This document shows, one piece after another, positions 4,055 through 53,404 of a DNA stretch of 64,000 nucleotides (position 1 is the first letter of the stretch; each line of letters opens with the position of its first letter). The stretch lies in NCBI GenBank assembly GCA_017983435.1, contig JAGOBM010000001.1:47916-111915 (forward strand), given 5' to 3'. A model generated the notes under the pieces. It was not told the origin of the DNA. It worked only from the letters and a program-made list of their open reading frames with translations, and did no database searches. Origin of the DNA: Candidatus Moraniibacteriota bacterium (lineage in GTDB: Bacteria; Patescibacteriota; Minisyncoccia; Moranbacterales; UBA1568). The position numbers and the translations under genes were made by a program.

Positions 4055-4874
4055 TATGGACCTCTCGGCTTTCCTTCAATTCGATTTTCTACAGCGGGCG
4101 CTCGAAGCCGGCATCCTCGTCGGTATCGCTGCTCCGCTGCTCGGCATGTTTCTTGTTGTGCGCCGCTATTCGCTGCTTTCCGATGCATTGTCGCACGTGT
4201 CGCTCCTCGGCGTGGCGCTAGCGCTCATACTCAAGATCCCGATTTTTTTCGGTGCGCTTTTCCTTTCGGTCGCATCAGCGCTCGGCATGGAACGGCTGCG
4301 AGCGAGCGGCCGGATGCCTGGTGAGTCGGTAGTGGCGCTCTTCCTTTCGGGCAGTCTAGCGCTGGCAGTCGTGCTCCTATCCTCGCTCCGCGGGCTCAAT
4401 GCGAATATCATGAGCTATCTCTTCGGGAGTCTTTCGACCGTGACCGCGTTCGATCTCCTGATGCTCTGCGTAATCGTCGCGCTCGTTATCGTGTTCGTCT
4501 CCTGGAAGTATCATTCGCTCTTCCTCTCCTCGCTCGATGAGGAGCTCGCCCGGGTGTCTGGGGTCCGGGTTTCGCTCCTCAATGTCTGCTTTGTCTCTTT
4601 GGCAGCCGGCGTCGTCGCGGCTTCCATTCAGATCGTCGGCGCTCTCCTGATCGGCGCGCTCATGGTAATACCGGTGCTGGCAGCGCTCGAGCTCCGGCGC
4701 GGATTCTTCGCTACCCTGATGGCTGCCGAAGTTATCTCGGTCGTAGCGGTCATCATCGGGTTCTTCCTGTCGTACCATTTCAACCTGGCCAGCGGCGGCG
4801 CTATCGTGCTGGTCGCTATGGGCGGATATTTCCTCGCGTTTTTCTATCGGAGGCTGGTGCCGTCAATTATTTGA
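4044..4874 (+). CDS. znuB: Metal ABC transporter permease. The start is taken at the ATG at 4044, which overlaps the znuC stop; the ORF track begins at 3897.
   Basis: Multi-TM protein typical of ZnuB/TroC; in operon position. Confidence 0.8.
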   Translation: MNTDMDLSAFLQFDFLQRALEAGILVGIAAPLLGMFLVVRRYSLLSDALSHVSLLGVALALILKIPIFFGALFLSVASALGMERLRASGRMPGESVVALFLSGSLALAVVLLSSLRGLNANIMSYLFGSLSTVTAFDLLMLCVIVALVIVFVSWKYHSLFLSSLDEELARVSGVRVSLLNVCFVSLAAGVVAASIQIVGALLIGALMVIPVLAALELRRGFFATLMAAEVISVVAVIIGFFLSYHFNLASGGAIVLVAMGGYFLAFFYRRLVPSII

Positions 4875-11002: not shown

Positions 11003-11030
11003 TAGACAAAAGCCCGGATTTCGCTATAAT
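11003..11030 (+). promoter_or_regulatory. Candidate sigma70 promoter for the tRNA cluster: TAGACA, 16-nt spacer, TATAAT.
   Basis: Hexamers seen directly upstream of the first tRNA-derived sequence. Confidence 0.35.
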
Positions 11031-11041
11031 GGCTGAGTATC

Positions 11042-11059
11042 TGATCGGGCCCATAGCTC
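11042..11059 (+). repeat. 18-nt partial copy of the tRNA-Ala 5' end (TGATCGGGCCCATAGCTC), duplicated 100 nt upstream of the intact gene.
   Basis: Identical 18-mers at 11042..11059 and 11142..11159. Confidence 0.7.
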
Positions 11060-11146
11060 CCTAGAGAGGCGGGTAAACATTTGGCAGAGCGCGCTTGGGC
11101 GTGTAGGTGCTCCGGTGGATACTCTGTTTGGTTTTTGAAAATGATC

Positions 11147-11219
11147 GGGCCCATAGCTCATTTGGTAGAGCACCTGCTTTGCACGCAGGGGGTGAGCGGT
11201 TCGAATCCGCTTGGGTCCA
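11147..11219 (+). tRNA. tRNA-Ala(TGC).
   Basis: Cloverleaf folds by hand; anticodon loop CTTTGCACG; G3:U70 alanine identity pair; no encoded CCA. Confidence 0.85.
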
Positions 11220-11296
11220 CCCTTGATTTTCTCGGATGCCTGGGGTACACTGGGCAACGTGGTGATCGAACCGGTTTTTTATTGTTGGAATTTCCC

Positions 11297-11370
11297 GGGC
11301 GATTAGCTCAGTTGGTTAGAGCGCGACACTGATAATGTCGAGGTCCCAAGTTCGAATCTTGGATCGCCCA
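11297..11370 (+). tRNA. tRNA-Ile(GAT).
   Basis: Cloverleaf; anticodon loop ACTGATAAT; acceptor stem GGGCGAT/ATCGCCC. Confidence 0.85.
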
Positions 11371-11395
11371 CACCGGCCATGTATGGCGGTATTAT

Positions 11396-11469
11396 AGCGG
11401 GGTAGAGCAGTCTGGCAGCTCGCTTGGCTCATAACCAAGAGGTCGGTGGTTCAAATCCACCCCCCGCAA
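11396..11469 (+). tRNA. tRNA-Met(CAT), possibly the initiator: A11:U24 pair and an unpaired 1-72 position.
   Basis: Cloverleaf; anticodon loop CTCATAA; D-stem GAGC/GCTC gives A11:U24. Confidence 0.65.
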
Positions 11470-11482
11470 CAAATGGAAAGAG

Positions 11483-11556
11483 GGCAGGGTAGCTCAGCCG
11501 GTTAGAGCACAGCACTCATAACGCTGAGGTCGTGGGTTCGATTCCCACCCCTGCTA
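11483..11556 (+). tRNA. Second CAT-anticodon tRNA, either elongator Met or tRNA-Ile2 (lysidine).
   Basis: Cloverleaf; anticodon loop CTCATAA; T-arm GTGGGTTCGATTCCCAC. Confidence 0.65.
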
Positions 11557-11580
11557 CACTTGAAAAAAGAACCAAGAACC

Positions 11581-11640
11581 AAGCTCCAATAACCAAGTAG
11601 CGTATTTCCTTGGTGATTGGATTTTGGTAATTGGAGCTCG
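11581..11640 (+). other. Stem-loop of about 60 nt between tRNAs (CAAGCTCCAATAACCAAG ... TTGGTAATTGGAGCTCG), possibly a processing or spacer structure.
   Basis: Near-perfect inverted repeat seen directly. Confidence 0.4.
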
Positions 11641-11652
11641 AATAGAGTCTAT

Positions 11653-11726
11653 GGGGGCGTAGCTCAGCTGGTTAGAGCGCCACACTGTCACTGTGGAGGT
11701 CGCGGGTCCGAATCCCGTCGCTCCCG
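11653..11726 (+). tRNA. tRNA-Asp(GTC).
   Basis: Cloverleaf; anticodon loop CTGTCAC; discriminator G73. Confidence 0.8.
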
Positions 11727-11735
11727 CCCATAGAA

Positions 11736-11768
11736 AAATACGGCCGGTTCATCCGGTCGTATTTTTTT
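11736..11768 (+). terminator. Intrinsic terminator ATACGGCCGGttcatCCGGTCGTAT followed by T9.
   Basis: Hairpin and T-run seen directly. Confidence 0.7.
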
Positions 11769-11899
11769 TGTGGAGCGAAAGAAATCAACTGCTTGATTTC
11801 TGTCGGGATGAGGAAAGCGGAGCGATGCCGAGCGAGTACGCGAGGCCGCGAGCTGGGGTCGCGAAAATCGGCGAGCGGCGGTGAGGCGATTATTCGTGA

Positions 11900-11924
11900 C
11901 CGAATCCCGTCGCTCCCGCCCATA
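11900..11924 (+). repeat. 25-nt partial copy of the tRNA-Asp 3' end (CCGAATCCCGTCGCTCCCGCCCATA), about 190 bp downstream of the intact gene.
   Basis: Identical to 11708..11732; looks like the partial tRNA copy left at the far end of an element integrated into a tRNA gene. Confidence 0.7.
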
Positions 11925-11958
11925 AACAAAAACAGGTCTCAGTGGACCTGTTTTTGTT
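11922..11958 (+). terminator. Second intrinsic terminator AACAAAAACAGGTCtcagtGGACCTGTTTTTGTT.
   Basis: Hairpin and T-run seen directly. Confidence 0.6.
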
Positions 11959-12093
11959 TGCTCAGGTGGGATATATGGATGAAGAATCCTGTCACTCTCA
12001 CCCAAAATATTCGGAAAGGGATACCGGATTGACAGAACGGATAGTCTCTGGTAGGGTGATATATCCCATTCGCCAAGGAAAGGAGGTGTCGTC

Positions 12094-12450
12094 ATGGGAG
12101 ATATCGTCGGTACGTGTATTACGTTCGGCAAACAGGAATGTGCGGTGATTGTCGCGCAGAAAGAGGTGTCGGGAGCACGGTTCATTGAATTGCTAGAGCA
12201 GAAAGTGATGGATGTCATTTTTCAGATCCATCATGAGATGGAGCGGATGCCGAGAAGCACACTCGTCGAATCTTTCACTGCCTCACCTCCTGAAAAGCCC
12301 TACTATGGTGATCTGATGATCGAAGTGGTCTACCGTCTCAGCGACGAAACTCGCTTTCGGCACACATTGCATTTCGTCTACGTCGATCGAGGGAGAAAGC
12401 TCGATGGAAAGCTGTATACGCAGCAGCGTCGCGAAATTCCACACTCATGA
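12094..12450 (+). CDS. Hypothetical protein, 118 aa.
   Basis: Strong SD AAGGAGGTG 7 nt upstream of the ATG; ordinary amino-acid composition. Confidence 0.5.
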   Translation: MGDIVGTCITFGKQECAVIVAQKEVSGARFIELLEQKVMDVIFQIHHEMERMPRSTLVESFTASPPEKPYYGDLMIEVVYRLSDETRFRHTLHFVYVDRGRKLDGKLYTQQRREIPHS

Positions 12451-39893: not shown

Positions 39894-40039
39894 TCCGGTA
39901 TTGTTGACATTCCCAGTATATTCAGTATAATGTTATTGCCCTTTGACAATCTCTGTTTCTCAGAAAGTCGCGGCTTTTTGTTGTTGAAGCTCGGTCGAGC
40001 TTCGCCAAAAGGGTGTTTTGGAAGTGAAAGGAGTCAATC

Positions 40040-40237
40040 ATGAGCAAAGACGTCTATCGTAATGGCGAACTTGTCGGTAAGATCGATGTTACACCTACGG
40101 CTAACGGTGGCACAAAGACAACGGAATCAGAAGTTCTTTCCCGAGATATTTTCGGGTTTGATACGGCAAAGATTACCACGGAAACTTACAGAGACGAGAA
40201 CAATAATGTTACTCGCATCGATGATCGTAAAAAATAA
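40040..40237 (+). CDS. Small hypothetical protein, 65 aa.
   Basis: Strong SD GAAAGGAG 7 nt upstream. Confidence 0.45.
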   Translation: MSKDVYRNGELVGKIDVTPTANGGTKTTESEVLSRDIFGFDTAKITTETYRDENNNVTRIDDRKK

Positions 40238-40597
40238 TCGGCATGGACGTAATTTGTCCATAACCGTATAAAGCAACTCTTCCGGATTCGCAGAAGTATC
40301 GGAGCGACGGAAGCCCCCTCGTACAAGAGTCGCCTGGCGACGAGACGGACAGCTCGTCTTGATCACCAGGTGCACGCATCGCACACAATAGTATCTGAGA
40401 CAGCTAGAATCCCGAGCAGTCTCCTCATCGCTTCATCAGAAGCGGCAGCAGTCAGTATCATCTGGCTGCTTTTTTCTTGCCCGATGGGGCTGCTCCGTGT
40501 TGGGGTGTCCCTATCGCAATACAGTTCTTTTCGTCTGAAACAGGGTGCCGGGTAGCCGATGTGATATGATGGACACATTGCTATTAAAGGAACAGCT

Positions 40598-40816
40598 ATG
40601 TTCGTTCGGCATCATCTCGTACGATATTTTACTCACAATATCGCTGTCGTCGTCGGCGTGGTCTTTGTCTGGCGAGGCATCTGGCATCTTCTCGATATCG
40701 TCGACATCAAGCTTTTCGACGGCAATCTGGCATATACCGCAGTAGGCGGTATTGTCCTCGGTCTGCTTATCCTGTATCTGCCGGACAAGGATCTGAAAGA
40801 GCTGGGAAATCTTTAG
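40598..40816 (+). CDS. Small membrane protein, 72 aa.
   Basis: Two TM helices; followed by a terminator. Confidence 0.35.
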   Translation: MFVRHHLVRYFTHNIAVVVGVVFVWRGIWHLLDIVDIKLFDGNLAYTAVGGIVLGLLILYLPDKDLKELGNL

Positions 40817-40828
40817 CGCCACTCACCC

Positions 40829-40858
40829 AGGGCTTCCACCGGAAGCCCTTTTATTTTT
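40829..40858 (+). terminator. Intrinsic terminator just outside the island's left border.
   Basis: GGGCTTCCaccGGAAGCCC followed by TTTTATTTTT. Confidence 0.7.
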
Positions 40859-40921
40859 ACTCAAAATGGGGTGTAATGCGGCTTGTGGAGCGGGGTATCA
40901 GGTGATAGGATATACGTAACA

Positions 40922-40941
40922 AGTTACGTAACTGATTACGT
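40922..40941. repeat. Left 20-bp direct repeat AGTTACGTAACTGATTACGT, containing the palindrome GTTACGTAAC; an extra inverted arm ACGTAACaaGTTACGT lies just upstream.
   Basis: Identical 20-mer at 49651..49670. Confidence 0.85.
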
Positions 40942-40943
40942 CT

Positions 40944-41120
40944 ATGACCAAGAAAATAACGGGGGATAAGAATACCAGAAAACTGACCAAGCTCGGGGGA
41001 AAGAGTATCGGGCTGACGCTTCCCATTGATATGGTCCGCGAGCTCGGCTGGAGAGAGAAACAGAAAGTTACAGTGAAGAGAGTAAGAGGAGGAGTTCTCA
41101 TCAAAGATTGGAAAGCTTAA
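40944..41120 (+). CDS. AbrB/MazE/SpoVT-like small DNA-binding protein, 58 aa (below the ORF-track size cutoff).
   Basis: Manual translation MTKKITGDKNTRKLTKLGGKSIGLTLPIDMVRELGWREKQKVTVKRVRGGVLIKDWKA; swapped-hairpin-like pattern. Confidence 0.45.
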   Translation: MTKKITGDKNTRKLTKLGGKSIGLTLPIDMVRELGWREKQKVTVKRVRGGVLIKDWKA

Positions 41121-41179
41121 ACGAATATTGATTAAGGATTTATCCCGCTAGATTCACCTGAGTGATCATTTAACTGGGA

Positions 41180-44100
41180 TTGGAAGAAATAGATTGTATG
41201 TCAGCAATAACAAACGTAGGGGCAAATACATTGTCATCTAATCTCAAAAGCATTCTTCCGAATTGTGATCGGGTAGATGCTCTTGTTGGTTATTTCTATT
41301 TTTCTGGATTCAAAGATCTTCATCATGAGCTCGAAGATAAGCAGATTCGGATTCTTGTCGGGATGGATATAGATAGGAAAATAATTGAGAAAGTGTCGAC
41401 ATTGAAGGATATTAATCTTGATTTCCATACGATCGAAACAAAAATTTCGTCTCGCTCAGGGGCGAAAGATGATTATATCGAAAACTTCTCAAAAGTTTTT
41501 AATGATACGGATTATTTTGATAATGAGGAGTCGCAAGTAGCCTTTGAAATATTTCTTGGGAAGATTCAGGATGGGAGTCTGCAGATTAAGAAGACTGCAC
41601 AAGCTAATCATTCTAAATTCTACATACTTCACAATAAACCGGAATTTTCCATGAATGGTATAACTCCGGGTATCGTTATTGAAGGTTCTAGTAATCTAAC
41701 CTTTTCTGGTTTGAAAGGACAAGGGGAGCATAATAGGATTTTGCAAGAAAAACATTATTATGATGATGATGTTCAGCGATTTGAAGAGTGCTGGAATGAT
41801 CCGGACAACATCATTATTACGGATTTGGACTCCTCAGAATCCTTTATCAAGGAGGTGAAGAGCAGAATCTGGCTTTATTCATTGCCGGATCCGCTTCTTA
41901 TGTACTACCGGGTGTTGAGCGAATACTTTTCCATCACGGAAGTCGAGGACATGAAGACCCCGAAGAATATAACCGGCGGGAAGTTTTCTGATCTTAAATA
42001 TCAGAAGGACGCGATCAATCTTGGTATTGACCGGATTAAGAAATTCGGCGGGGTGATAATTGCGGATGTTGTCGGACTCGGGAAAAGTATTGTGGCTTCC
42101 GCTATTGCTCATAACTTAGGCATGAAGACGCTTATCATTGCGCCACCACACCTTGAGAGCCAGTGGAAAGACTACATGGCAGAATTCGATTTCAAAGGTT
42201 TTGTGTATACGACTGGGAAAATCGAGGAGGCTCTCGAGAGACATGGGAGTGATGATGGAAAGTTATTGATTATTCTCGACGAAGCGCATAAGCACCGGAA
42301 CGAGGATACGGACAACTACAAAGTGCTCCATCGTCTCTGTGCTGGTCACTATGTGATGGCTCTTTCCGCGACTCCGTTCAATAATGATCCAAAAGATATC
42401 TATGCGCTCATAAAACTGTTCAGTACACCGGGACAGTCGACTATCCGGACCGTGGAGAATTTGAGCATGTCGTTCCATATGCTTTTCAAGCGATACAAGA
42501 CAGTGAGAAGGCAGCTCCGTAATACAGGAAAAGATGACAATGGCGAGGGGTCTACTATCAGAGTTGAACTTCATTCCATCGCTGATGAATTGCGTAGGAT
42601 GATAGAGCCGCTCATTATCCGGCGATCAAGATTGGATCTCGAGGAAATCGACGAGTACCGGAACGATCTGAAAGCGCAAGGAATTTCTTTCGCGAAGGTA
42701 CATGATCCAGAATTACTCGAGTACGAACTGGGAGATATGTTTGACCTGTATGTTGGGACACTCGAGAAAATCGCTCCGGAAGACAAGAGCACAAGTTTCA
42801 TCGGCGCGAGGTACAAGCCGGCTAGTTATATCCGGCAGGGGTCGGAGTTTATCAAGAAGCTTGTCGAGGGTGACGATGACGAGGATGGCGTATCTCCTGA
42901 AGAAAAACTCCATAGCATCAAACAGGCGCAGGTGAACATCACGAAGTTCATGCGAAGATTACTGGTGAGGCGCTTTGAAAGTTCAATCGGTGCGTTCAAA
43001 CTTTCACTGGGGAATATGATCACGTCTTCGGAAGTGATGCTGGATTGGTATGTGAATAGACATGAAGTTCCTATTTTCAAGAAGGGGGCGCTCCCGGATG
43101 TCGAAGATCTGAATGAGATGGACGATAAGGAACGGGAAGATCTTCTTTCAAAATTCGAGGATAAGGGACTCATCAGGATACCTGTTGCGGAACTTCAGCC
43201 GGAGTTTGAATCGCATTTGAGAAGCGATATAGTTCTGCTTAAAGAGATACAAGGGAAGTGGGCGCACAATTCTGATGATCCGAAATACGAATTCCTTAAG
43301 AAGAAATTGTCTGAAGCTATTTTTCAAGACAAGAAGCGGAAGATCATCATCTTTACGGAGTTTTCTGATACCGCCAATTACGTTTATCAAAAACTGAACG
43401 ATGATGGATTCAAGAGGGTATTCAAATATAGTTCGGAAGATTCCACTGATGAGAACAAGCGGATTATCCGGGCTAATTTTGATGCTGGGTTGGATGATGC
43501 GAAACAAACCGATGATTATGATGTCATTATCGCAACAGATGCGATTTCGGAAGGATTCAACCTGCACCGCGCCGGCATCGTCATCAACTATGATATTCCT
43601 TACAATCCGACGAGAGTGATCCAGCGTGTTGGTCGTATAAACCGCATCAACAAGAAGGTTTTTGACGAGTTGTATATATACAACTTTTTCCCAACTTTGA
43701 CCGGCGAGATGGAGACCCGGACGAAGGCGATCTCGACACTAAAGATGGATCTGATTCATACGCTTCTCGGGGAGGACACCAAGACATTGACATCCGATGA
43801 GGATTTGAAGAATTACTTCGCGAAGCAGTACAAGGAGGAAAATTCGAAAAGCGAGAAGCTCTCATGGGATGCTCCATACAGGAATACCTGGCTCTCCATA
43901 AAAGACGACCAGGATATAATGCGAAAAATCGCTGAAATTCCCCATCGATCAAGAATCGCAAGGAAAGCGAAAATTTCTGGTGTTGTGGCATTTGCCAAGA
44001 AGAGTGGAAACTACGTATTTGCGTTTGGTGAGAGTCCGGAGACTGTGCAGATTGTATCCCCGCAGATTGCTCTACCATTGTTCAATGAGGTCGCGGATTT

Positions 44101-44488
44101 AGAGCAACCTCTCCAGACGACTATCAACTTTGATCCAATTTATAAAATAGCCAAGGAACATATCTTTAAGGATAACACTCGATCGCCGGTTGATAGCGGA
44201 AGAAAACAGGACTCACTTAATAAAATTAAGATCCTTTCGGATAATTATCCTCAAGCCAAAGATCTTTGTATTGACCTGATTAGGGTTATTAAGGATCTTG
44301 ACGGTCTGCCGAACGGAGTGCTTAAGGAAATCGCAGAGCTAAAAATCGACAAGAACGATTTTGGAAAAGCGTTCCAGGAATTGAAGGAGCTCGTGCCACA
44401 CAAGTATCTCGAAAGCATATTTAGGACAGCGGATCGAGCCAATGACACTGGGAAGCTTATTGTCTTATCCGAAGAGTTGGTCGTATGA
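41180..44488 (+). CDS. Fusion of an N-terminal PLD-family (HKD) nuclease domain with an SNF2-family helicase, 1102 aa.
   Basis: HSKFYILHN...GSSNLT matches the HxK...GSxN PLD motif; SNF2 motifs ADVVGLGKS (I), ILDEAHKHRN (II), LSATPFNN (III), and helicase C-terminal motifs DAISEGFNLH and QRVGRINR. Confidence 0.85.
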   Translation: MEEIDCMSAITNVGANTLSSNLKSILPNCDRVDALVGYFYFSGFKDLHHELEDKQIRILVGMDIDRKIIEKVSTLKDINLDFHTIETKISSRSGAKDDYIENFSKVFNDTDYFDNEESQVAFEIFLGKIQDGSLQIKKTAQANHSKFYILHNKPEFSMNGITPGIVIEGSSNLTFSGLKGQGEHNRILQEKHYYDDDVQRFEECWNDPDNIIITDLDSSESFIKEVKSRIWLYSLPDPLLMYYRVLSEYFSITEVEDMKTPKNITGGKFSDLKYQKDAINLGIDRIKKFGGVIIADVVGLGKSIVASAIAHNLGMKTLIIAPPHLESQWKDYMAEFDFKGFVYTTGKIEEALERHGSDDGKLLIILDEAHKHRNEDTDNYKVLHRLCAGHYVMALSATPFNNDPKDIYALIKLFSTPGQSTIRTVENLSMSFHMLFKRYKTVRRQLRNTGKDDNGEGSTIRVELHSIADELRRMIEPLIIRRSRLDLEEIDEYRNDLKAQGISFAKVHDPELLEYELGDMFDLYVGTLEKIAPEDKSTSFIGARYKPASYIRQGSEFIKKLVEGDDDEDGVSPEEKLHSIKQAQVNITKFMRRLLVRRFESSIGAFKLSLGNMITSSEVMLDWYVNRHEVPIFKKGALPDVEDLNEMDDKEREDLLSKFEDKGLIRIPVAELQPEFESHLRSDIVLLKEIQGKWAHNSDDPKYEFLKKKLSEAIFQDKKRKIIIFTEFSDTANYVYQKLNDDGFKRVFKYSSEDSTDENKRIIRANFDAGLDDAKQTDDYDVIIATDAISEGFNLHRAGIVINYDIPYNPTRVIQRVGRINRINKKVFDELYIYNFFPTLTGEMETRTKAISTLKMDLIHTLLGEDTKTLTSDEDLKNYFAKQYKEENSKSEKLSWDAPYRNTWLSIKDDQDIMRKIAEIPHRSRIARKAKISGVVAFAKKSGNYVFAFGESPETVQIVSPQIALPLFNEVADLEQPLQTTINFDPIYKIAKEHIFKDNTRSPVDSGRKQDSLNKIKILSDNYPQAKDLCIDLIRVIKDLDGLPNGVLKEIAELKIDKNDFGKAFQELKELVPHKYLESIFRTADRANDTGKLIVLSEELVV

Positions 44489-47400
44489 TGAAATTCAACG
44501 AGAAATATCAACCCGATGATTTTCTGCAATTTTTGCAGGAGTTTTTACCGGAAGATTTTTCAGAAAAAGAGGAAGATATTGTCATCAACAAGGAACGATA
44601 TAAGGTGATAACCGAAGCTACGGTTCTTGGCTACTGTGGCTCGCTCGATCTTCATGTTTTGGAGATGGTCCATACCAGAGAAAAGGATCCTCGGGTTTCT
44701 ATTACTACAGATGCGTTCAAGATTCTTGCTGATAATTGGATTCATCGTGCGCTGGTCGTTTTTAGGAACAAGGATACCGAGAATTATCGGTTTTCATATT
44801 TGACTATCACTCTTGATCTAAATGATAAGAGTAAAGCAGTTAAAAAGTATTCAAATGCACGGAGATATTCTTTCTATCTAGGAGCGAATGCAAAGGTGCG
44901 GACGCCGGAGCAGCAGTTGATCAAGAAAGGGAGAATTAAGGATGTCGACGATCTGCTCACCCGGTTCTCGGTGGAGGTGGTCAATAAGCAATTCTATCTT
45001 GAGGTGGCCAAATTTTTTGATGAGCTTGTATCGGGTGAGGGTAAAAATTTGTCGCTTCCGAGCGTATCGCAGGAAAACGTAAATGTTAGGAAGAGCTTTG
45101 CTGTCCGGTTGATCGGCCGCCTGATGTTCTGCTGGTTTTTGAAACAGAAGAAATCTGAATCAGGCCAGCTTATTCCCGATGAATTGCTTTCTTCTGATGT
45201 CGCTAGGAAGACAAGTGGTTATTATCACGGCATTCTTGAGCCGCTCTTTTTTGAGGTGCTGAACACGAGTATTAACACTCGTGGCATCAGGAGCGAGTTG
45301 TTCGATAGGGTGCCGTATTTGAATGGTGGACTTTTTAATCCTCAGCCGGAGGATTACTACGAATTAGACGGAAGTACATTTTTTTCGAAGTATATCAATA
45401 CGCTTTCGATAAGTGATCAGTGGTTCGTGGATTTCTTCGAACTCCTCGAACTGTATAACTTCACCATCGATGAAAACACGGTGTTCGATCAGGAGCTTTC
45501 CGTGGATCCGGAGATGCTCGGGAGGATCTTCGAGAATTTGCTTGCCGAGATAAATCCGGAAACCGGGAGCAGCGAGCGGAAACGGACTGGGAGTTTTTAC
45601 ACCCCACGGCAGATCGTGGAGTATATGGTCGACCAGTCGCTCATAGAATACTTCAAGACCAAGACGAGCATCGACGAAGCGAAACTCGCCGCGCTTGTGA
45701 GTTACGATCTTAATGATGATGCTGGCTATCCATTGTCGGATGATGAGAAACAGAAAGTGGTGATGGCGATTGAGACCCTGAAACTTCTTGATCCGGCCTG
45801 TGGATCTGGCGCATACCCGATTGGGGCACTCCAGAAGATCGTTTATATCCTCCAGATCGTCGATCCGGACTGCAAACTCTGGCTTAATGAGAAGCTGAAA
45901 GACGTCCCAGATCTGTACAAACAGAAGATCATTAATGAAGTTCACTCAAACCCATTTGATTACACGCGCAAGCTCGATGTGATTAAAAATTCCATTTTCG
46001 GAGTGGATATCCAGCCGATTGCTGTGGACGTATCTCGTTTGCGGTGTTTTCTTACACTTGTTGTGGAATCGGAGATTGACGATATAAAGCCAAATCGAGG
46101 CATTGAACCACTGCCAAACCTTGATTTCAAATTCGTATGCGCCAATACGTTGATTGGTCTCCCGAAGGCGGAGTCGAGCGGATTGTTTGATGACCATTCT
46201 GGAATTTCAGAACTTTCAAAGATCATGTCAGAGTATTTCTCCTGTAATAGTCAGAGAAAAAATGAAATTCGTCTTAAGTTTCTTCATGTTCAAAAAGATA
46301 TCCTCGAGAAAACTATTTCTGCCTTTGGAAAAAATACTGGAGAGCTCACGCTGAGGCTCGCCACATGGAATCCGTTCAGTAATAATTCTAATAGCTGGTT
46401 TGATCCGGAGTGGATGTTTGGTATTACAGAAAAGTTCGATATTGTAATCGGAAATCCTCCTTATAATGTTAAATTATCTGGCGAGGAGAGAAAATTTTAT
46501 AAAGGAAATTATATAGGGGTAAAGTCTGGAAGACAGGATACCGCTGCAATTTTTGTTGAGGCAGCTTCGCGGTTTAGCAATAACGAATCTATTGTATGTT
46601 TTATCATCCCATACCGGCTGTTCTCTCGAAAAAGAAATCATGGAGCTTTCCAAGAGTATGTTCTGAAAAATTCTTCAATAAATGAGATAGTTTATCTAGG
46701 AAAGGATGCTGGGTTTGACACTGCAAAAGATGAATTTATGATCGTGGTGTTTTCGAAATATGAACACGATAATTCTATAAGAATTTGCAGTAAGCCCGAT
46801 TTCAAGAATCTAAATAGACTAGATTTTTCGCGTGTCGCCCAGTGTATATTCGAGAAAAGTAATGAAATTAATATAAATGTTTCTAAGTTTGACACGCGAA
46901 TTTTATCAAAGATAGAAAAAGGGAATCCCATTTTATCAGACATATGTTATGTCAAAGATGGAATAGTCCCGTATATTCGGGAGAAAATGATAAGCCAAAG
47001 AAAAATTGATGATCGTTATGTAAAGTTCGCTGGTGTTTCTGGAACGTATAAGCTTGATAGGTACGCATTTACCGCAGATGAGATGTATTTATGCTATGAC
47101 ATATTAGAAGCAAAAAAGTATATATCGGATATTAACGAATTAAGAAAAGTGCAGTTAAGGGATAAGGCAATCTTCTTGCAAGATGAGAAAATCATTACTT
47201 CTCAGAATAGCGCGAAATTAAAAGGATCGATTGATACTGAACAGTATTTCGTATCTAATTCGATACACAGTACATACCTCAAAGAAGAATGTAAGGACAA
47301 GTATAAACTATCCTTTATTTTAGGTTGTATCAATTCTTCCTTGCTAAATTATTACTATAACTCGAAGCGGTTGAAGGGAGTGGATTTGCACCCACAGATA

Positions 47401-47610
47401 TTAATTACAACATTGAAACTATTGCCGATTCCAGCGATCATTGGGGAGCGAGTTGTGGTGGTTAAAGAAGTTATTTCTTTAGTTGAGGATGTGATGAGAA
47501 TGAAAAAGTCTGGTACAAATACTGAGGATTTAGAAAACAAGATTGATGAGCTTGTTATGGATCTTTACGGACTCAATGATGAAGAAAAGGAAGTTGTAAG
47601 AAATTCGTAG
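44485..47610 (+). CDS. Gamma-class N6-adenine DNA methyltransferase of the Eco57I/MmeI/PglX type, with an N-terminal domain of about 350 aa and a C-terminal TRD-like region; 1041 aa. Translationally coupled to the upstream gene by an ATGA overlap.
   Basis: GSFYTPRQIVEYMV (motif X), LLDPACGSGAYP (motif I), VIGNPPYNV (motif IV). Confidence 0.85.
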   Translation: MMKFNEKYQPDDFLQFLQEFLPEDFSEKEEDIVINKERYKVITEATVLGYCGSLDLHVLEMVHTREKDPRVSITTDAFKILADNWIHRALVVFRNKDTENYRFSYLTITLDLNDKSKAVKKYSNARRYSFYLGANAKVRTPEQQLIKKGRIKDVDDLLTRFSVEVVNKQFYLEVAKFFDELVSGEGKNLSLPSVSQENVNVRKSFAVRLIGRLMFCWFLKQKKSESGQLIPDELLSSDVARKTSGYYHGILEPLFFEVLNTSINTRGIRSELFDRVPYLNGGLFNPQPEDYYELDGSTFFSKYINTLSISDQWFVDFFELLELYNFTIDENTVFDQELSVDPEMLGRIFENLLAEINPETGSSERKRTGSFYTPRQIVEYMVDQSLIEYFKTKTSIDEAKLAALVSYDLNDDAGYPLSDDEKQKVVMAIETLKLLDPACGSGAYPIGALQKIVYILQIVDPDCKLWLNEKLKDVPDLYKQKIINEVHSNPFDYTRKLDVIKNSIFGVDIQPIAVDVSRLRCFLTLVVESEIDDIKPNRGIEPLPNLDFKFVCANTLIGLPKAESSGLFDDHSGISELSKIMSEYFSCNSQRKNEIRLKFLHVQKDILEKTISAFGKNTGELTLRLATWNPFSNNSNSWFDPEWMFGITEKFDIVIGNPPYNVKLSGEERKFYKGNYIGVKSGRQDTAAIFVEAASRFSNNESIVCFIIPYRLFSRKRNHGAFQEYVLKNSSINEIVYLGKDAGFDTAKDEFMIVVFSKYEHDNSIRICSKPDFKNLNRLDFSRVAQCIFEKSNEININVSKFDTRILSKIEKGNPILSDICYVKDGIVPYIREKMISQRKIDDRYVKFAGVSGTYKLDRYAFTADEMYLCYDILEAKKYISDINELRKVQLRDKAIFLQDEKIITSQNSAKLKGSIDTEQYFVSNSIHSTYLKEECKDKYKLSFILGCINSSLLNYYYNSKRLKGVDLHPQILITTLKLLPIPAIIGERVVVVKEVISLVEDVMRMKKSGTNTEDLENKIDELVMDLYGLNDEEKEVVRNS

Positions 47611-47628
47611 GTATAGTTATAGTTTTGT

Positions 47629-48501
47629 ATGGAAAGTCAGCTTTTTTCAGAAAAATCTTTGGCGGATCATTTATTTGATATCTGTTATGATGGTCCATCT
47701 TTTGATGGTGCCATGGAAATTTCTTTGTTAAAAAATGAAATAGCTGGTCTTGATAATGCTTTACGTATAGCAGCGCAAGTTTTAGCAAAACATAAAAAAA
47801 TCGACTTTCGTTCTGGTGATGTAGAGATTTATATTGAGGCTTTTGAGAGGGGTTCTTTTAAGAAAAAAGTTAAAGTTGTTTTAAAATCTTTACAGGATTT
47901 AAACCAGTATCAAGGTGCGATAGCTCTGGGGGCGTTAGTTATTAGTGTGATGACATTCGTAAAACAACAGGAGACTTTAGATATAGACCATATACCACCG
48001 GAAATAATGGCTCAGTTTAAGACTCAAGTGGAGTATGATTTGTTACAGAATAGAGAATTTCTTAAGTCTGTTTCTGATATTGTTGCCCCATTGAATCAAA
48101 GCGGTGATCATTTACATATAGCCGTCCCGAAAAATTCTGAAACCGATATAGATTACTTGGATAAAGAAAAATTTATTAAATTAGCACTACCCAGCGTGGT
48201 TGAAGGGGTTGATGGCGATAAACACGAGATAATCGTAGGGCGGATTAATCGCGTTGATCTCGATGCTACTATTCGCCATATTGGATTCAAGGTAAAAGGA
48301 GAGGGGTCTTCGATTCCGGCAACGCTTTCAACTCAGGTAAAATCTTCTGTTAGTATGAATGACTTACTGGGGAAGTGGGTGGAAATGGGTGCTTTAACTA
48401 CGTATAAAGGCGATATCAGAGAGCATATCGAGATTGAGGATATAAAAATAGTAGAACAACAAAAACTCCCCATTGATTTTAATAATGAAGGAATCGAGTG
48501 A
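47629..48501 (+). CDS. Hypothetical protein, 290 aa, island cargo.
   Basis: ORF with AT-rich codon usage matching the island. Confidence 0.5.
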   Translation: MESQLFSEKSLADHLFDICYDGPSFDGAMEISLLKNEIAGLDNALRIAAQVLAKHKKIDFRSGDVEIYIEAFERGSFKKKVKVVLKSLQDLNQYQGAIALGALVISVMTFVKQQETLDIDHIPPEIMAQFKTQVEYDLLQNREFLKSVSDIVAPLNQSGDHLHIAVPKNSETDIDYLDKEKFIKLALPSVVEGVDGDKHEIIVGRINRVDLDATIRHIGFKVKGEGSSIPATLSTQVKSSVSMNDLLGKWVEMGALTTYKGDIREHIEIEDIKIVEQQKLPIDFNNEGIE

Positions 48502-48546
48502 TTTGGCGTTAAAAAATTCGTTGTAAGTTAGGGATTACTAGGCAAT

Positions 48547-49368
48547 ATGCGTTTTTCTCAAAGAATAGGTAAATCTTCAATAAGGACAGAAATTCAAGTT
48601 GATTCGATGGATGATCGACTAAGGAACCGACTTTTTAATGTTGTGAAAGACTATATAGATCAACAATTGGCCTTCTGGGATGCGGGACGATATATTAAGC
48701 ATGATTTTATTGTTCAATATTGTGATTGTTTTGGTAAGTTACATAAGAGTGATGACTACGAAGATTTTTTTAAAGAATTATTCCAAAAAATATTTGTTAA
48801 TGAAGATATTTTTTTCTTTTATGATTTTATAGAATTTGTAGTTCGGCGGGGCGCACATAGTAAAGAAATTCTTATTCATGAATTCAATCGTATTTTTGAA
48901 GAAGAAAAATCAGCGTACAAACTTGATATTAGTGGGTCTTTAATACAAATTACAGATGATATTGAGCTTGAAGAGATTGATTTGGCAATAGCGAGTGCGA
49001 GCGAGTATAAGAGTGTACAAGAGCATTTGGAGAAGGCTAGGGGATTTTTCTCTAGCCGTGAAAATCCTGATTACAAGAAATCTATCGAAGAATCTGTTCA
49101 TGCTATAGAGGCAATGGCTAAAATAGTAGTAAAAGATAAAAATGCTATTTTGAGTGATGCGTTGAAGAAGATAAATGATTTGCACCCAGCTTTGAATCAG
49201 AGTTTGCAAAAGTTGTATGCCTTTGCCGGGGATGCAAGCGGTATTCGTCATAGTAACAAAGAGCCTGTTGATTCTGAAAAAGAACATTCTGTAGGAATTG
49301 GTGAGGCAAGAATGATTCTTGTTTTGAGTCACTCAATGATTAATTATTTGAAAGAGAAGTTTTTGTAA
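48547..49368 (+). CDS. Hypothetical protein, 273 aa, possibly AbiJ-N-terminal-like plus a HEPN-like C-terminus (ARMILVLSH, Rx6H).
   Basis: N-terminus MRFSQRIGKSSIR and the C-terminal Rx6H motif; weak manual similarity only. Confidence 0.45.
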   Translation: MRFSQRIGKSSIRTEIQVDSMDDRLRNRLFNVVKDYIDQQLAFWDAGRYIKHDFIVQYCDCFGKLHKSDDYEDFFKELFQKIFVNEDIFFFYDFIEFVVRRGAHSKEILIHEFNRIFEEEKSAYKLDISGSLIQITDDIELEEIDLAIASASEYKSVQEHLEKARGFFSSRENPDYKKSIEESVHAIEAMAKIVVKDKNAILSDALKKINDLHPALNQSLQKLYAFAGDASGIRHSNKEPVDSEKEHSVGIGEARMILVLSHSMINYLKEKFL

Positions 49369-49652
49369 TGAAAAAGAATGATAAGAGAGAATTGAATCGA
49401 GGATTTGGGCTTACTATTATAGGGGCCTTGCTTGGATTTTTCATAAGCGTGACAGCATCGGGAGTGTTTGAAATTTCAATGCATGGCCGGTCTGGTCGGG
49501 CAGGCTGGATTACTCTTTGTTATGGTGTAGTCTCTTTGTTTCTGATTTCGTTATTTTCGTACCGTATAGAAAATTTAGATCGGGTAAAAAACATGTCCGA
49601 TGGAGAAATTTTTAAAGATTATTTGAAAACCGTGCTTCATTTTAAGAAATAG
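49368..49652 (+). CDS. Small two-TM membrane protein, 94 aa; its ATG overlaps the upstream TAA.
   Basis: TAATG overlap; two hydrophobic helices. Confidence 0.4.
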   Translation: MKKNDKRELNRGFGLTIIGALLGFFISVTASGVFEISMHGRSGRAGWITLCYGVVSLFLISLFSYRIENLDRVKNMSDGEIFKDYLKTVLHFKK

Positions 49653-49670
49653 TTACGTAACTGATTACGT
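49651..49670. repeat. Right 20-bp direct repeat AGTTACGTAACTGATTACGT.
   Basis: Identical to 40922..40941. Confidence 0.85.
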
Positions 49671-49678
49671 AAACCGGT

Positions 49679-50074
49679 ATGCAAGCCTGCGAGACGGTCG
49701 GGGAATATATGGAGGGGCTGCCTGAGGGAGTGCGGGCGGAGTTCACTCTGCTCTGGCAGACAGTCCGGGAGCTGGTACCAGGGGGCGAGGAAGTGATCCG
49801 CTACGGGATGCCGACTATGCGGGTGGTGGGGAAGAATCTCGTCCACTGCGCCGTCATGAAAGAGCATTTCGGATTCTATCCGACCCCTTCGGGCGTGAAG
49901 GCATTTGAGAGCGAGCTTCTTGGGAAATATCGGTATTCCGAGGGTGCTATCCAGTTTCCGTTCGGCGAGCGGCTGCCGCTCCCGCTTGTCCGCAAGATCG
50001 TGCGCTTCCGCCTCTCCGAAGAATCTTCCCTCCCAGAATCCCTCGAAATCCCACCCTCCAAAAAAGTAACATAA
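49679..50074 (+). CDS. DUF1801/YdhG-like protein.
   Basis: Pattern HCAVMKEHFGFYPTPSGVKAFESELL; 131 aa. Confidence 0.55.
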   Translation: MQACETVGEYMEGLPEGVRAEFTLLWQTVRELVPGGEEVIRYGMPTMRVVGKNLVHCAVMKEHFGFYPTPSGVKAFESELLGKYRYSEGAIQFPFGERLPLPLVRKIVRFRLSEESSLPESLEIPPSKKVT

Positions 50075-50075
50075 T

Positions 50076-50097
50076 TATACGGCCGTGGAATTATGTT
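50076..50097. promoter_or_regulatory. Palindromic element TAATTATACGGCCGTGGAATTATG upstream of the PaaX-like gene; a related copy lies downstream of it.
   Basis: The arm CGTGGAATTATG is shared with 50759..50783. Confidence 0.4.
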
Positions 50098-50154
50098 ACA
50101 ATATAAAAAAGAGAAGATGTATTTTTCGGATACGATATAAGGTGCAGAAGATGT

Positions 50155-50760
50155 ATGTATAAGTTCGGCCCGGTTCAACAGAAGCTCCTCCTCCTGCTTG
50201 TCGCTGGAATCGGGTTGGGATTGGAGACTTCCTCTATCCGCTATTATCAGAAGCTCGGAGCGATAGTGAGGGAATGGAAACGTATCGATCAGCGAAGTAT
50301 CAAGCGTTCCGTAAGGCGCTTGTGCAGTGAGAAGCTGGTCAGGGAAATCATCCAGCCTGATGGATCATTCAAGCTCGTGCTTACGGAGGAGGGGAAGAGG
50401 CAGGCTCGCATCCAATTTCTTTTCGACAATTCGATCCGTTTCAAGAATTCGAGGCGATGGGATAAGAAATGGCGTATCGTCATGTTTGATATCCCGGAAA
50501 AGGAGAGAGGATTCCGCGATATTCTGCGCGAGCATCTGCGTGAATTGAATTTTTATAAGCTGCAGCAGAGTGTCTTCGCTTCCCCGAATCCGTGCGAGAA
50601 GCAGATAGCGGAACTGGTATCGTTGTATAGAGCGGAATCGTTGGTGCGTGTAATGACAGTCGATTGGATCGATAACGAGAAGAAGCTCAGGGATTATTTT
50701 TTTGGCCAGAAATCTTCCCGGAAAATTACTCAGAAAACCGAATATGAAACGGTATCATAA
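50155..50760 (+). CDS. PaaX-like transcriptional regulator: N-terminal wHTH plus a C-terminal PaaX_C-like domain.
   Basis: WDKKWRIVMFDIPEKERGFRDILREHLRELNFYKLQQSVFASP resembles the PaaX C-terminal signature. Confidence 0.45.
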   Translation: MYKFGPVQQKLLLLLVAGIGLGLETSSIRYYQKLGAIVREWKRIDQRSIKRSVRRLCSEKLVREIIQPDGSFKLVLTEEGKRQARIQFLFDNSIRFKNSRRWDKKWRIVMFDIPEKERGFRDILREHLRELNFYKLQQSVFASPNPCEKQIAELVSLYRAESLVRVMTVDWIDNEKKLRDYFFGQKSSRKITQKTEYETVS

Positions 50761-50783
50761 TTCCACGGTCGTGGAATTATGAT
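50759..50783. promoter_or_regulatory. Perfect palindrome AATTCCACGGTCGTGGAATT (20 bp) overlapping the stop of the PaaX-like gene.
   Basis: Seen directly; related to the upstream copy. Confidence 0.4.
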
Positions 50784-50986
50784 ACTTTTAAAAATGCGGG
50801 ATTATTCTTAATGGGGACAGATATGGAAAAATCCTACCAGCAGTGCCAGTCGTGCAGCAGATCCCGAAGAGCTGGTAAGATAGGCTGATCCGGAGCGGTA
50901 AGTAGATCGAATCAGGGGCTTGACTTCCGGGTGTATACTGGAAGAGTCAATGAGGGGGGGTGTAATTCGTAACGCAGAACATGCTT

Positions 50987-51214
50987 ATGGAAACTACGCC
51001 AGTGAGACGTCTGTATCGGAGCGCTACGGAGCGGGTCTGCGCGGGAGTGTGCGGCGGTCTGGGGGAATACTGGGCGATCGACCCGGTCGTGCTGCGGCTC
51101 TTGTGGACATTTATCACGGTCTTTACCGGGTTTGCGCCCGGCATCATCGTCTATATCCTCGCGGTCTTCATCATCCCAGTGAAGCCTCTGGAACTGCCAG
51201 TTGCTCATCAATAA
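50987..51214 (+). CDS. PspC-domain membrane protein.
   Basis: LYRSATERVCAGVCGGLGEYWAIDPVVLRLLW PspC signature followed by a TM helix. Confidence 0.7.
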   Translation: METTPVRRLYRSATERVCAGVCGGLGEYWAIDPVVLRLLWTFITVFTGFAPGIIVYILAVFIIPVKPLELPVAHQ

Positions 51215-51425
51215 TTTTTAACAGGACGAGTATGGATAAGATCAAAATCGAGAATCATGCGTGCTCAGGCGGCATATGGATAGTGGCCTGGATGTTCACC
51301 GTCGGATTCTTGCAGCTGACATTCTGGCAGGGAGTGCAGGCGATCGTCATCTGGCCGTACTATCTCGGCGATGCTGTCCGTCCGATGTTTTTCGAGTAGA
51401 TCAGGAACTTTTCCGTGGGGTGCTT

Positions 51426-51731
51426 ATGCCAAAAGATATATTCAAAATACAGGCAGCAGTATGGCTGTATCCGGGGGAGAATGCCAACTGGCATTTTGTA
51501 AATGTATCGAAAGAGGTATCAGCTGAGATCCGAGAGCGTTTCGGGGGGAAATCGAGAGGGTGGGGATCCTTGCCGGTGACGGTGACTCTCGGTCAGACGA
51601 CTTGGGATACTTCGATTTTTCCCGATAAGAAATCCGCTACCTATCTCCTGCCGCTCAAGGCGGCGGTGCGAACCAAGGAGACGGTTCGGGCTGGTGACAG
51701 CGTATCCTTATCGATACGGATCCGCGCCTAA
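51426..51731 (+). CDS. DUF1905-family small protein.
   Basis: GSLPVTVTLGQTTWDTSIFP pattern; 101 aa. Confidence 0.5.
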   Translation: MPKDIFKIQAAVWLYPGENANWHFVNVSKEVSAEIRERFGGKSRGWGSLPVTVTLGQTTWDTSIFPDKKSATYLLPLKAAVRTKETVRAGDSVSLSIRIRA

Positions 51732-51873
51732 GGTGTCTTTTTTTTGGTCTTCAAATCCCATCCCTTCCACTACGGAAGGGGTTTTTGATATATCATTTGA
51801 CGGTTTTTCCGTATCTTCCTATACTGTATGCAGATGGTAGTGTAAGTCTGGTAAACAAACTTTCATACGTCGT

Positions 51874-52722
51874 ATGGAGAAAGAAATCATATCGCGTCTG
51901 CATAAGCACTTCGAAGAATACGCCCATGACCGGGATGGGGTGGAGTTCTGGTATGCTCGGGAGCTCCAGGATTTGCTTGGATATGATGAGTGGCGGAATT
52001 TTGAAGGGGTTATTGATAAGGCGAAGATAGCCTGTAGAATGGCTCAACAGAAAGATTCTGATCATTTTGTTGACGCCAACAAAACGATACCGATGCCGAA
52101 AGGCGCCAGCAAGGAAGTACTGGATATCATGCTGACGCGCTACGCCTGCTATCTCATCGCCCAGAATGGCGATCCGCGCAAGGATGAGATCGCTTTTGCA
52201 ATGACGTATTTTGCCATCCAGACCCGCAAGCAGGAGGTGGTCGAACAGCGGCTGGCCGAGTGGGAGCGGCTGTACGCGCGGGAGAAGCTGACACTTTCGG
52301 AAAAGGAACTCTCCGGCGTGCTGTACGAGCGCGGTGTCGACAGCCATGGATTCGCGCGTATCCGAAGTCGTGGGGATCAGGCTCTATTCGGTGGGAGCAC
52401 GACGCAGGAGATGAAGTTCAAGCTGCGGGTGCCATCGACTCGCGCCTTGGCGGATTTCCTCCCTGCAGTGACGATCAAGGCCAAGGATCTGGCTACGGAG
52501 ATCACCAATCACAATATCAAGCAGGACGGGACGCTCCGAGGGGAGCCGATCATCGCAAGTGAGCACGTGAAGAACAATCGGAATATGCGCGAGATGCTCG
52601 TCAAAAGCGGTATCTATCCGGAAGCGCTCCCGGCAGAAGAGGATATCCAGAAGCTGGGGCGTCGGCTGAAATCCGAAGGCAAGAAGCTGTCGAAACAGGT
52701 GAAGGTATTGAAGAAAAAATAA
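51874..52722 (+). CDS. dinD: DNA-damage-inducible protein D.
   Basis: Strong similarity to the remembered E. coli DinD sequence: EFWYARELQDLLGYDEWRNFEGV and MLTRYACYLIAQNGDP. Confidence 0.8.
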   Translation: MEKEIISRLHKHFEEYAHDRDGVEFWYARELQDLLGYDEWRNFEGVIDKAKIACRMAQQKDSDHFVDANKTIPMPKGASKEVLDIMLTRYACYLIAQNGDPRKDEIAFAMTYFAIQTRKQEVVEQRLAEWERLYAREKLTLSEKELSGVLYERGVDSHGFARIRSRGDQALFGGSTTQEMKFKLRVPSTRALADFLPAVTIKAKDLATEITNHNIKQDGTLRGEPIIASEHVKNNRNMREMLVKSGIYPEALPAEEDIQKLGRRLKSEGKKLSKQVKVLKKK

Positions 52723-52745
52723 TTTGTCGGGTTAAGCAGAAGAAT

Positions 52746-53396: not shown

Positions 53397-53404
53397 TTTT
53401 TTTT

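Follow-up and report, generated by a model that had tools for sequence, protein, structure and literature searches.

What does it mean when an exact fragment of a transfer RNA (tRNA) gene lies just beyond the operon that holds the intact gene? The question is raised by a five-gene tRNA operon of a Candidatus Moraniibacteriota bacterium, located in a 64,000-nt stretch of contig JAGOBM010000001.1 (hereafter the window, meaning the whole stretch; the feature studied is the tRNA operon region within it). A 25-nt copy of the 3' end of tRNA-Asp lies downstream of the operon and an 18-nt copy of the 5' end of tRNA-Ala lies between its promoter and its first gene. An earlier note, made from the letters of this DNA, regarded both fragments as possible traces of integration and excision, and the tRNA-Asp pair with the little DNA between its copies as what is left of a lost element or as a duplicated attachment site.

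The comparison with related loci described here separates these claims. In this lineage, elements integrate at the 3' end of tRNA-Asp, and the downstream copy (R2) may belong to a row of attachment-core copies that arose at a serine-recombinase hot spot, its unit being a recombinase-less mini-unit with a conserved tRNA-like element (element X); we consider the chances of this interpretation to be even. The repeats, the alternative alleles, the tandem array, a recombinase remnant and a covarying fold are direct observations. Compared loci and contigs are designated by L-numbers, and their relatedness is graded by the identity of their DprA protein to that of the window.

The tRNA operon and its repeats

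The operon is flanked on one side by dprA-topA on the - strand and on the other by a 118-aa open reading frame (ORF) followed by a DEAD-box helicase on the + strand. Most of the named homologs of this DprA are labelled Candidatus Moraniibacteriota, at about 50% identity, and by these names the genome is that of an uncultured member of the Patescibacteria (CPR). Its five tRNA genes, all on the + strand (11147-11730; order Ala-Ile-Met-Met-Asp), are called concordantly by ARAGORN and Rfam, in agreement with the set given earlier (Ala-TGC, Ile-GAT, two CAT tRNAs and Asp-GTC in about 600 bp). The features of the region are as follows.

11003-11030, + strand: sigma-70-type promoter of the tRNA operon, TAGACA-16 nt-TATAAT, 11 of 12 consensus positions; kept in L006, L143, L149 and L155
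11042-11141, + strand: 100-nt leader module, with an 18-nt repeat copy (11042-11059) followed by an apparently decayed tRNA-Ala-like body with a 19-nt insert (repeat search, allele comparison)
11147-11221, + strand: tRNA-Ala (TGC); the second 18-nt repeat copy is 11142-11159 (ARAGORN, Rfam)
11297-11371, + strand: tRNA-Ile (GAT) (ARAGORN, Rfam)
11396-11470, + strand: tRNA with CAT anticodon, first of two (ARAGORN, Rfam)
11483-11557, + strand: tRNA with CAT anticodon, second of two (ARAGORN, Rfam)
11652-11730, + strand: tRNA-Asp (GTC), T-loop TCCGAAT, C at position 55 (ARAGORN, Rfam)
11708-11732, + strand: R1, putative attachment-core copy in tRNA-Asp, starting in the T-loop and ending 6 nt past the discriminator base (repeat search)
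11734-11770, + strand: terminator A, hairpin with 14-nt arms, then T8 (inverted repeat 11734-11766 and T run)
11771-11899, + strand: element X, about 130 nt, non-coding, between terminator A and R2 (folding, covariation, no Rfam match)
11900-11924, + strand: R2, second putative attachment-core copy, which also gives X the 3' strands of helices P3 and P1 (repeat search, fold)
11924-11959, + strand: terminator B, perfect 15-nt arms, resembling the native terminator of the empty site (inverted repeat)
11965-12002, + strand: Y', truncated start of a second module, beginning GGUGGGAUAUAUGGAUGAAGA (comparison with L143)
12029-12057, + strand: promoter-like TTGACA-17-TAGGGT ahead of the 118-aa ORF, start of the flanking chromosome (motif kept before the 116-aa homolog in L175 and L179)
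12094-12450, + strand: 118-aa ORF downstream of the operon (ORF call)

The 25-mer CCGAATCCCGTCGCTCCCGCCCATA has two exact occurrences, R1 and R2 (25/25 identical), as noted earlier, and the expected number of occurrences of its 17-nt core in shuffled sequences is 0.00. Similarity between the two copies reaches beyond the exact repeat, covering 39 nt at 87% identity and extending left into the 5' strand of the T-stem. Behind each copy lies an inverted repeat, perfect or near-perfect, with a T run (terminators A and B); these hairpins had been recognized in the earlier note, and neither is called by the program's G+C-rich terminator rule. Terminators of the type AAAAATCC...GGATTTTT also occur 3' of tRNA-Asp in L006, L161, L159 and L164. 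The 18-mer TGATCGGGCCCATAGCTC is likewise exact at two places 100 nt apart, the second made up of the 5 nt before tRNA-Ala and the first 13 nt of the gene, and shuffles yield a mean of 0.14 matches even when up to three mismatches are allowed.

Identical sequence with these repeats is present in independent assemblies (L001, L002, L176, L177, and L178), thus the repeat arrangement is not an assembly artefact. With these assemblies, the shuffle expectations of 0.00 and 0.14 and homologous arrangements in other species, an origin of the repeats by chance or misassembly is already refuted, its probability being negligible. What R1 and R2 represent in the window is an intact tRNA gene with a downstream direct repeat of its 3' end, as seen in integrative islands.

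Islands at the 3' end of tRNA-Asp in sister genomes

A relative with 70% DprA identity (L006) has the same five-tRNA operon. L006 overlaps L180/L181 at 99.8% identity over 1412 bp, so that they can be joined into one locus. Here the core (TCCCGTCGCTCCCGCC) occurs four times in tandem, and the copies delimit a mini-module, an island of 0.85 kb and a defence island of 9.7 kb. Read outward from the tRNA gene, R1 in tRNA-Asp is followed by a terminator, a short X-like piece (X'), R2, another terminator and the 0.85-kb island; then come R3 (perfect core), the 9.7-kb island, R4 (degenerate core), a terminator, and finally a 116-aa homolog of the 118-aa ORF of the window. The 9.7-kb island encodes an ABC ATPase, a Shedu SduA_C protein, a KAP NTPase and a DUF5677 protein.

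Two other loci of the same species complete the picture: L175 has an empty site, and L179 contains a different island, with an N6/N4 methylase and a ResIII helicase, at whose end the conserved right-end motif and the core are again present; a 324-aa ORF near the left of the L179 island has no family match. Empty (L175), occupied (L180/L181) and differently occupied (L179) alleles with the same boundaries thus exist, and L143 lacks the unit found between the cores in the window. The comparison of relatives suggested in the earlier note therefore did reveal elements at the tRNA-Asp core (in the L006/L180 genome and in L179), and of its attL/attR footprint the part that stands is that the tRNA-Asp 3' end serves as an integration site in this lineage, with four tandem cores, islands and a truncated recombinase in one genome and an empty site in another.

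The recombinase is represented by a reverse-strand ORF that reads through R3 (L006:578-1426). It matches the PHROG 95 integrase family (E 3e-25) and the large-serine-recombinase zinc ribbon of Pfam (Zn_ribbon_recom, 48.8 bits versus a cut-off of 25.3); stop codons interrupt its N-terminal part, and the catalytic domain is not intact. A recombinase gene inside the repeats and beside an attachment site is present solely in the sister genome, in this truncated form at R3, and the 167-bp unit of the window has no room for a gene. Likewise, the layout typical of ssrA islands and staphylococcal cassettes (a reverse-strand large serine recombinase, short direct repeats and a tandem array) is found in the L006 and L180 genome and not in the window.

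These observations suggest the following mechanism. The tRNA-Asp 3' end, beginning in the T-loop and reaching a few bases beyond the discriminator base, would be the attachment core of a recombination hot spot, and the large-serine-recombinase islands of the lineage would use this core. Each insertion would add one direct core copy, and units would therefore stack in tandem 3' of tRNA-Asp; they could be lost again through recombination between core copies. The window would then contain the intact tRNA (R1), one 167-bp recombinase-less unit (terminator A and X), R2 with terminator B, and the stump Y', and its R2 would have arisen by site-specific insertion.

Searches beyond the sister genomes gave few further loci. 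No match to 11731-11960 was found by blastn in phage and plasmid collections. Scans of viral contigs returned only phage tRNA-Asp genes and chance sites with the 17-nt core, a lysin gene (by chance) with an X motif, and nothing with the X-R2 junction pattern or the island right-end motif. Of 128 matches to the 17-nt core in a metagenome scan, 92 are tRNA-Asp genes from many phyla, and L054 was the sole further locus that aligns across the tRNA operon. One locus (L142) considered as a phage attachment site with an integrase was rejected, as no integrase was found there.

Distribution of the 167-bp unit

The sequence between R1 and R2 (11733-11899) is non-coding: it is flanked by attachment-type repeats and has no genes for integration or transfer. 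This unit (unit A, i.e., terminator A plus X) was taken earlier for the trace of a lost element or a duplicated attachment site. Its distribution does not agree with leftover cargo in decay, since it recurs 3' of the same operon in L006 (70% DprA identity, short form), L159 (65%, 5' remnant only) and L161 (62%, full length), with a fold kept by compensatory changes. Of X, the remnant in L159 retains only the first ~45 nt, behind terminator A, and its P2 hairpin is broken. In L161 the neighboring tRNA-Asp is gone and R1 has decayed, while R2 is identical to the tRNA-Asp 3' end of the sister loci L162 and L164. Unit A is missing from L162, L164 and the more distant L054, where a single terminator accompanies tRNA-Asp. 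From this spread and these absences it follows that unit A is old, shared by descent in the clade and lost several times.

A close relative of the window (L143/L144, 95% DprA identity) has terminator B directly 3' of the intact tRNA-Asp, and unit A is absent exactly at the repeats. Terminator B is followed there by 26 nt homologous to window positions 11960-11987, a ~95-nt element (Y) and a further core copy. Element Y shares GGAUGAGGA with X; the window retains only its start (Y'), and L143 has the full version ending in a core. The simplest reading is that the ancestral array was tRNA-Asp with a core, unit A, core, unit B, core, from which L143 would have lost unit A between cores and the window the end of unit B.

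The same distribution admits another explanation, a real possibility in our judgement if one short of even. The terminal tRNA genes would have undergone partial tandem duplication in place (tRNA-Ala with its 5' flank, tRNA-Asp with its terminator) and the copies would have decayed or been remodelled; X and R2 would be a selected small RNA derived from tRNA-Asp, and the islands would target the site independently. Several features are in line with this: the interior of the leader resembles the D-arm of tRNA-Ala, the similarity of R2 to the tRNA runs left of the exact repeat (the 39 nt mentioned above), the 3' strand of the anticodon stem of tRNA-Asp is matched by GTGGAG at the start of X, and R2 has the base that is specific to the tRNA-Asp of its clade (A59 in the window; G59 in L161, L162 and L164). 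In addition, the unit accompanies the same operon down to 62% DprA identity with no mobile gene inside, and tandem partial tRNA-Asp copies of the same kind occur in another organism (L062). The earlier note had itself named, as evidence for a stable local duplication, the same fragments in relatives without a mobile element, and this is what L161 displays: no mobile gene lies between terminator and fragment. However, R2 forms one tandem series with R3 and R4, and these two delimit real islands; among close relatives, the unit is gained or missing precisely between the repeats; and identities of 18/18 and 25/25 beside bodies that are about half diverged are incompatible with neutral decay. Insertion at a hot spot and duplication are not mutually exclusive.

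Other rearrangements were noticed in these loci. L161 contains at 4416-4492 (- strand) a chimeric pseudo-tRNA in which the 5' two-thirds of the second CAT tRNA are joined in the T-loop to a decayed tRNA-Asp-like 3' end; because both genes are merged in this chimera, the locus has neither an intact second CAT tRNA nor an intact tRNA-Asp. On the unrelated metagenome contig L062 (470-730, - strand), tRNA-Asp is followed by two tandem 92-nt units, each with a decayed piece of the anticodon arm, the same 3' core and a terminator. A 114-aa ORF without family match replaces the Met-Asp spacer in L143 (273-617, - strand), and a 187-aa methyltransferase lies between tRNA-Ala and tRNA-Ile in L159 (4149-4712, - strand).

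A predicted tRNA-like fold formed by element X and R2

In the minimum-energy fold, X and R2 together adopt a tRNA-like structure with a 7-bp acceptor-like stem stacked on a 5-6-bp T-stem-like helix, plus three added hairpins. P1 pairs GGAGCGA (11772-11778) with the acceptor 3' strand of R2, TCGCUCC (11910-11916). P2 is a 9-bp hairpin (11780-11801, loop CUGC). P3 pairs CGGGAU (5' strand, 11804-11809) with the T-stem 3' strand of R2, AUCCCG (11904-11909), and encloses both the P4 (11816-11854, loop AGUA) and P5 (11857-11901) hairpins. The X homolog of L161, found at the same place on a 740-kb contig, gives an independent minimum-energy fold with the same architecture.

The RNAalifold structure of the two sequences has 45 pairs; 11 are compensatory and none is broken. 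In a control that shifted the 3' partners by 1-3 columns, 1-3 compensatory pairs remained versus 11. The loops CUGC and AGUA and the unpaired linker GAGGAAAGCGGAGCGAUG are constant between the window and L161 while the stems differ. P1 and P3 cannot covary because their partner strand, the core, is invariant. The 5' end of X, in full or short forms, has a perfect 7-9-nt complement of the core in differing register (GGAGCGA in the window, GGAGCGACG in L006, GCGGGAG in L161), matched by composition shuffles in 18, 1 and 43 of 2000 cases, respectively. Fold z-scores are -2.9 (window) and -5.9 (L161) for the + strand and -1.5 and -4.2 for the - strand, and the + strand of X is more stable than the - strand by about 16 kcal/mol in both. 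A candidate X RNA would thus most likely be read in the direction of the operon. A covariance model of X (itself labelled R1) recovered X in the window and L161 only, plus a weak match to Y in L143.

No family was found for X or for the tRNA-Ala leader in Rfam, at the gathering threshold or with E up to 10, and neither X plus R2 nor the leader matched the tRNA covariance model (RF00005) or ARAGORN, even with E up to 10. No transfer-messenger RNA (tmRNA) was called by ARAGORN, and Rfam gave for this class only an irrelevant weak permuted-tmRNA match at 11195-11269. Substitutions in X are distributed over codon positions as 15/13/12, i.e., without codon periodicity, thus X is not coding and was rejected as such. 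An intron-containing tRNA-Asp was discarded (the P2 loop is CUGC and there is no GTC anticodon), as were tmRNA, signal recognition particle RNA and 6S RNA, no model of which matches.

X is therefore presented as a candidate new structured RNA, resting on two full sequences; as a functional RNA it would be either a small RNA cut from the operon transcript by tRNA-processing enzymes or a structure influencing recombination at the site, both being possible roles. More specifically, X and the tRNA-Asp 3' fragment may constitute an undescribed family of tRNA-like structured RNA derived from tRNA-Asp, kept by selection in a Moraniibacteriota-related clade of Patescibacteria, with a 3' strand that doubles as the core of serine-recombinase islands. 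This proposal is tentative and we regard it as somewhat doubtful. Under it, the integration "scar" could have been taken over as a functional RNA, or could have begun as one. In either case the small unit does not appear to be a dying scar, because it is the oldest and most widely shared unit of the array and the fold of X and R2 is conserved and strand-specific.

Compensatory changes may also have a purely mutational origin. X could be a structure at the level of DNA, either a single-stranded folded site for recombination or replication or a set of quasi-palindromes perfected by template switching, an explanation that we find improbable. All supported helices are indeed local hairpins or pairings with the invariant core, X has a terminator before it and no promoter, and in L161 the reverse strand also folds better than its shuffles (z -4.2). 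It is more difficult to explain in this manner that the + strand is the more stable one by ~16 kcal/mol in both genomes and uses G-U pairs, and that the two loops and the linker GAGGAAAGCGGAGCGAUG remain constant between sequences whose stems differ.

The interpretation of R2 as an attachment-core copy whose mini-unit carries a conserved tRNA-like element has to be weighed against several points. No recombinase was detected among the 30 ORFs of the 64-kb window scanned against Pfam, and X does not resemble the conserved right end of the true islands. The occurrence of unit A in relatives down to 62% DprA identity is explained as well by a local duplication inherited vertically as by an ancient insertion, and the tandem partial tRNA-Asp copies of L062 look like plain local duplication. 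With regard to X, the 11 compensatory pairs of 45, none broken, come from two full-length sequences and a structure derived from those same two, and template switching in inverted repeats can yield compensatory-looking changes without selection. Finally, X sits behind a strong terminator (A) and has no promoter of its own, and its expression is for this reason hypothetical.

The tRNA-Ala leader module

The fragment at the other end of the operon had also been taken for a possible integration footprint, and this view was not sustained. The promoter placed before it (TAGACA-16-TATAAT) and the exact, non-random 18-nt copy are as described earlier. No recombinase is linked to the fragment, which bounds a 100-bp decayed copy of tRNA-Ala that is present or absent within one species: the stretch 11042-11141 occurs in the window, L143 and L149-L153, whereas L154, whose DprA protein is the same as that of L149-L153, lacks it precisely between the 17-18-nt repeats. 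L155 and L156 (82% DprA identity) lack the stretch too, as do all checked relatives at 70% DprA identity or less.

Within the leader, the D-arm stretch CATTTGGCAGAGCGC resembles tRNA-Ala CATTTGGTAGAGCAC, a score reached by shuffles in 18-32 of 500 cases, and the fold of the leader is not significant (z-scores 0.2, -1.0, and 0.9). The bases just 5' of tRNA-Ala vary by species and are equal in both copies (TGATC in the window, TTCT in L149). The leader is best read from these alignments as a decayed tandem copy of tRNA-Ala, which may be lost by recombination between the repeats. The Ala fragment is a separate case of the same plasticity, namely the boundary repeat of a copy lying between promoter and gene.

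Additional observations were made on the L149-L153 loci. In L149 (1-300, - strand; a species with 84% DprA identity) the operon ends with the first CAT tRNA and gives way to unrelated DNA that is AT-rich, and L152, with the same DprA protein, keeps both CAT tRNAs. The last ~25 nt of L153 (- strand) are the Illumina adapter AGATCGGAAGAGCGTCGTGTAG at the end of a Logan contig, an assembly contaminant and not biology.

Comparison with known systems

The closest counterparts are the ssrA islands of Dehalococcoides, which are arranged in tandem 3' of a tRNA-like gene, each bounded by a ~20-bp direct repeat of the 3' end of the gene, with the insertion point in the T-loop and a CcrB-like large serine recombinase on the reverse strand beside attL (PMC3146451). 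A conserved motif lies just upstream of each repeat, and units lacking a recombinase are read as cis-mobilizable (PMC3146451). The tRNA-Asp array of the sister genome has the same overall layout. It differs in its target (tRNA-Asp instead of ssrA) and host (Patescibacteria), in that the sole recombinase seen, in the sister genome, is truncated, and in its innermost unit of 167 bp with a covarying structured element that uses the repeat as one strand.

Composite staphylococcal cassette chromosome elements (SCCmec/CcrAB) and pseudo-SCC are serine-recombinase cassettes that sit at the 3' end of a housekeeping gene between direct repeats of 15-20 bp, arranged in tandem and in some cases without a recombinase. 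Tandem units bounded by short repeats at the 3' end of a gene, some recombinase-less, are common to both systems; the SCCmec target, however, is the protein-coding orfX/rlmH, and to our knowledge no structured RNA occurs at the SCCmec junction. Cis-mobilizable elements (CIMEs) are flanked by attL/attR-type repeats, have no genes for integration or transfer and usually comprise kilobases of a decayed element, whereas the unit described here is 167 bp long, conserved across deep divergence and CIME-like by sequence features alone.

Integration into tRNA genes at a T-loop sublocation, mainly by tyrosine integrases, was reportedly described by Williams in 2002 in Nucleic Acids Res. The block of identity at the window locus, from the T-loop to just past the tRNA 3' end, with the intact gene rebuilt on the promoter side, agrees with such a sublocation; the enzyme implicated is a large serine recombinase instead. 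In the tRNA-like domain of tmRNA and in YrlA (Rfam RF02553), the 5' and 3' ends pair as an acceptor-like stem on a T-stem-like helix with extra structure inserted. X plus R2 resembles them in the stacking of an acceptor-like and a T-stem-like helix with inserted structure. In contrast to these RNAs, X matches no tmRNA, YrlA or tRNA model and has no intact T-loop, no G3-U70 pair and no tag reading frame.

Other features of the operon and the window

The T-loop of tRNA-Asp (11705-11711) is TCCGAAT in the window, L006, L143 and L175, with C55 at a position where U (pseudouridine) is almost universal. It is TCCGAGT in L162 and L164, and the usual TTCGA occurs in tRNA-Asp of L054 and L159. The same C55 change is present in tRNA-Ala of L159, L161, L162 and L164. 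The spacer between the second CAT tRNA and tRNA-Asp contains a hairpin with 15-nt arms (11582-11638) that is kept in L006, L162, L164 and L159.

A distant part of the window (40000-54200) has a low G+C content (35-46% versus ~55% elsewhere) and encodes defence-type genes, among which, as listed here, no recombinase was seen.

41180-44488: SNF2/PLD helicase
44485-47610: Eco57I-type methylase
48547-49368: AbiJ
50155-50760: PaaX/Cas2-like protein
51874-52722: Bro-N protein
52746-53396: LexA-like S24 peptidase
53405-53953: DUF3800 protein
54071-54132, - strand: DUF3800-II RNA

Significance

Tandem attachment-site repeats at a tRNA-type gene, with recombinase-less units among them, are a known kind of feature, of which this locus is a new instance in Patescibacteria. 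The tiny genomes of these host-dependent bacteria keep a classic tRNA-linked hot spot that stacks defence islands, apparently driven by a large serine recombinase, and the exact core sequence of this hot spot is now given. The unusual part is the 130-nt element between the cores, whose fold is kept over deep divergence and in which the core is one strand of a tRNA-like stem. If X is a real RNA, it would represent a new class of tRNA-derived RNA, and the locus would show that an integration footprint can have its own function.

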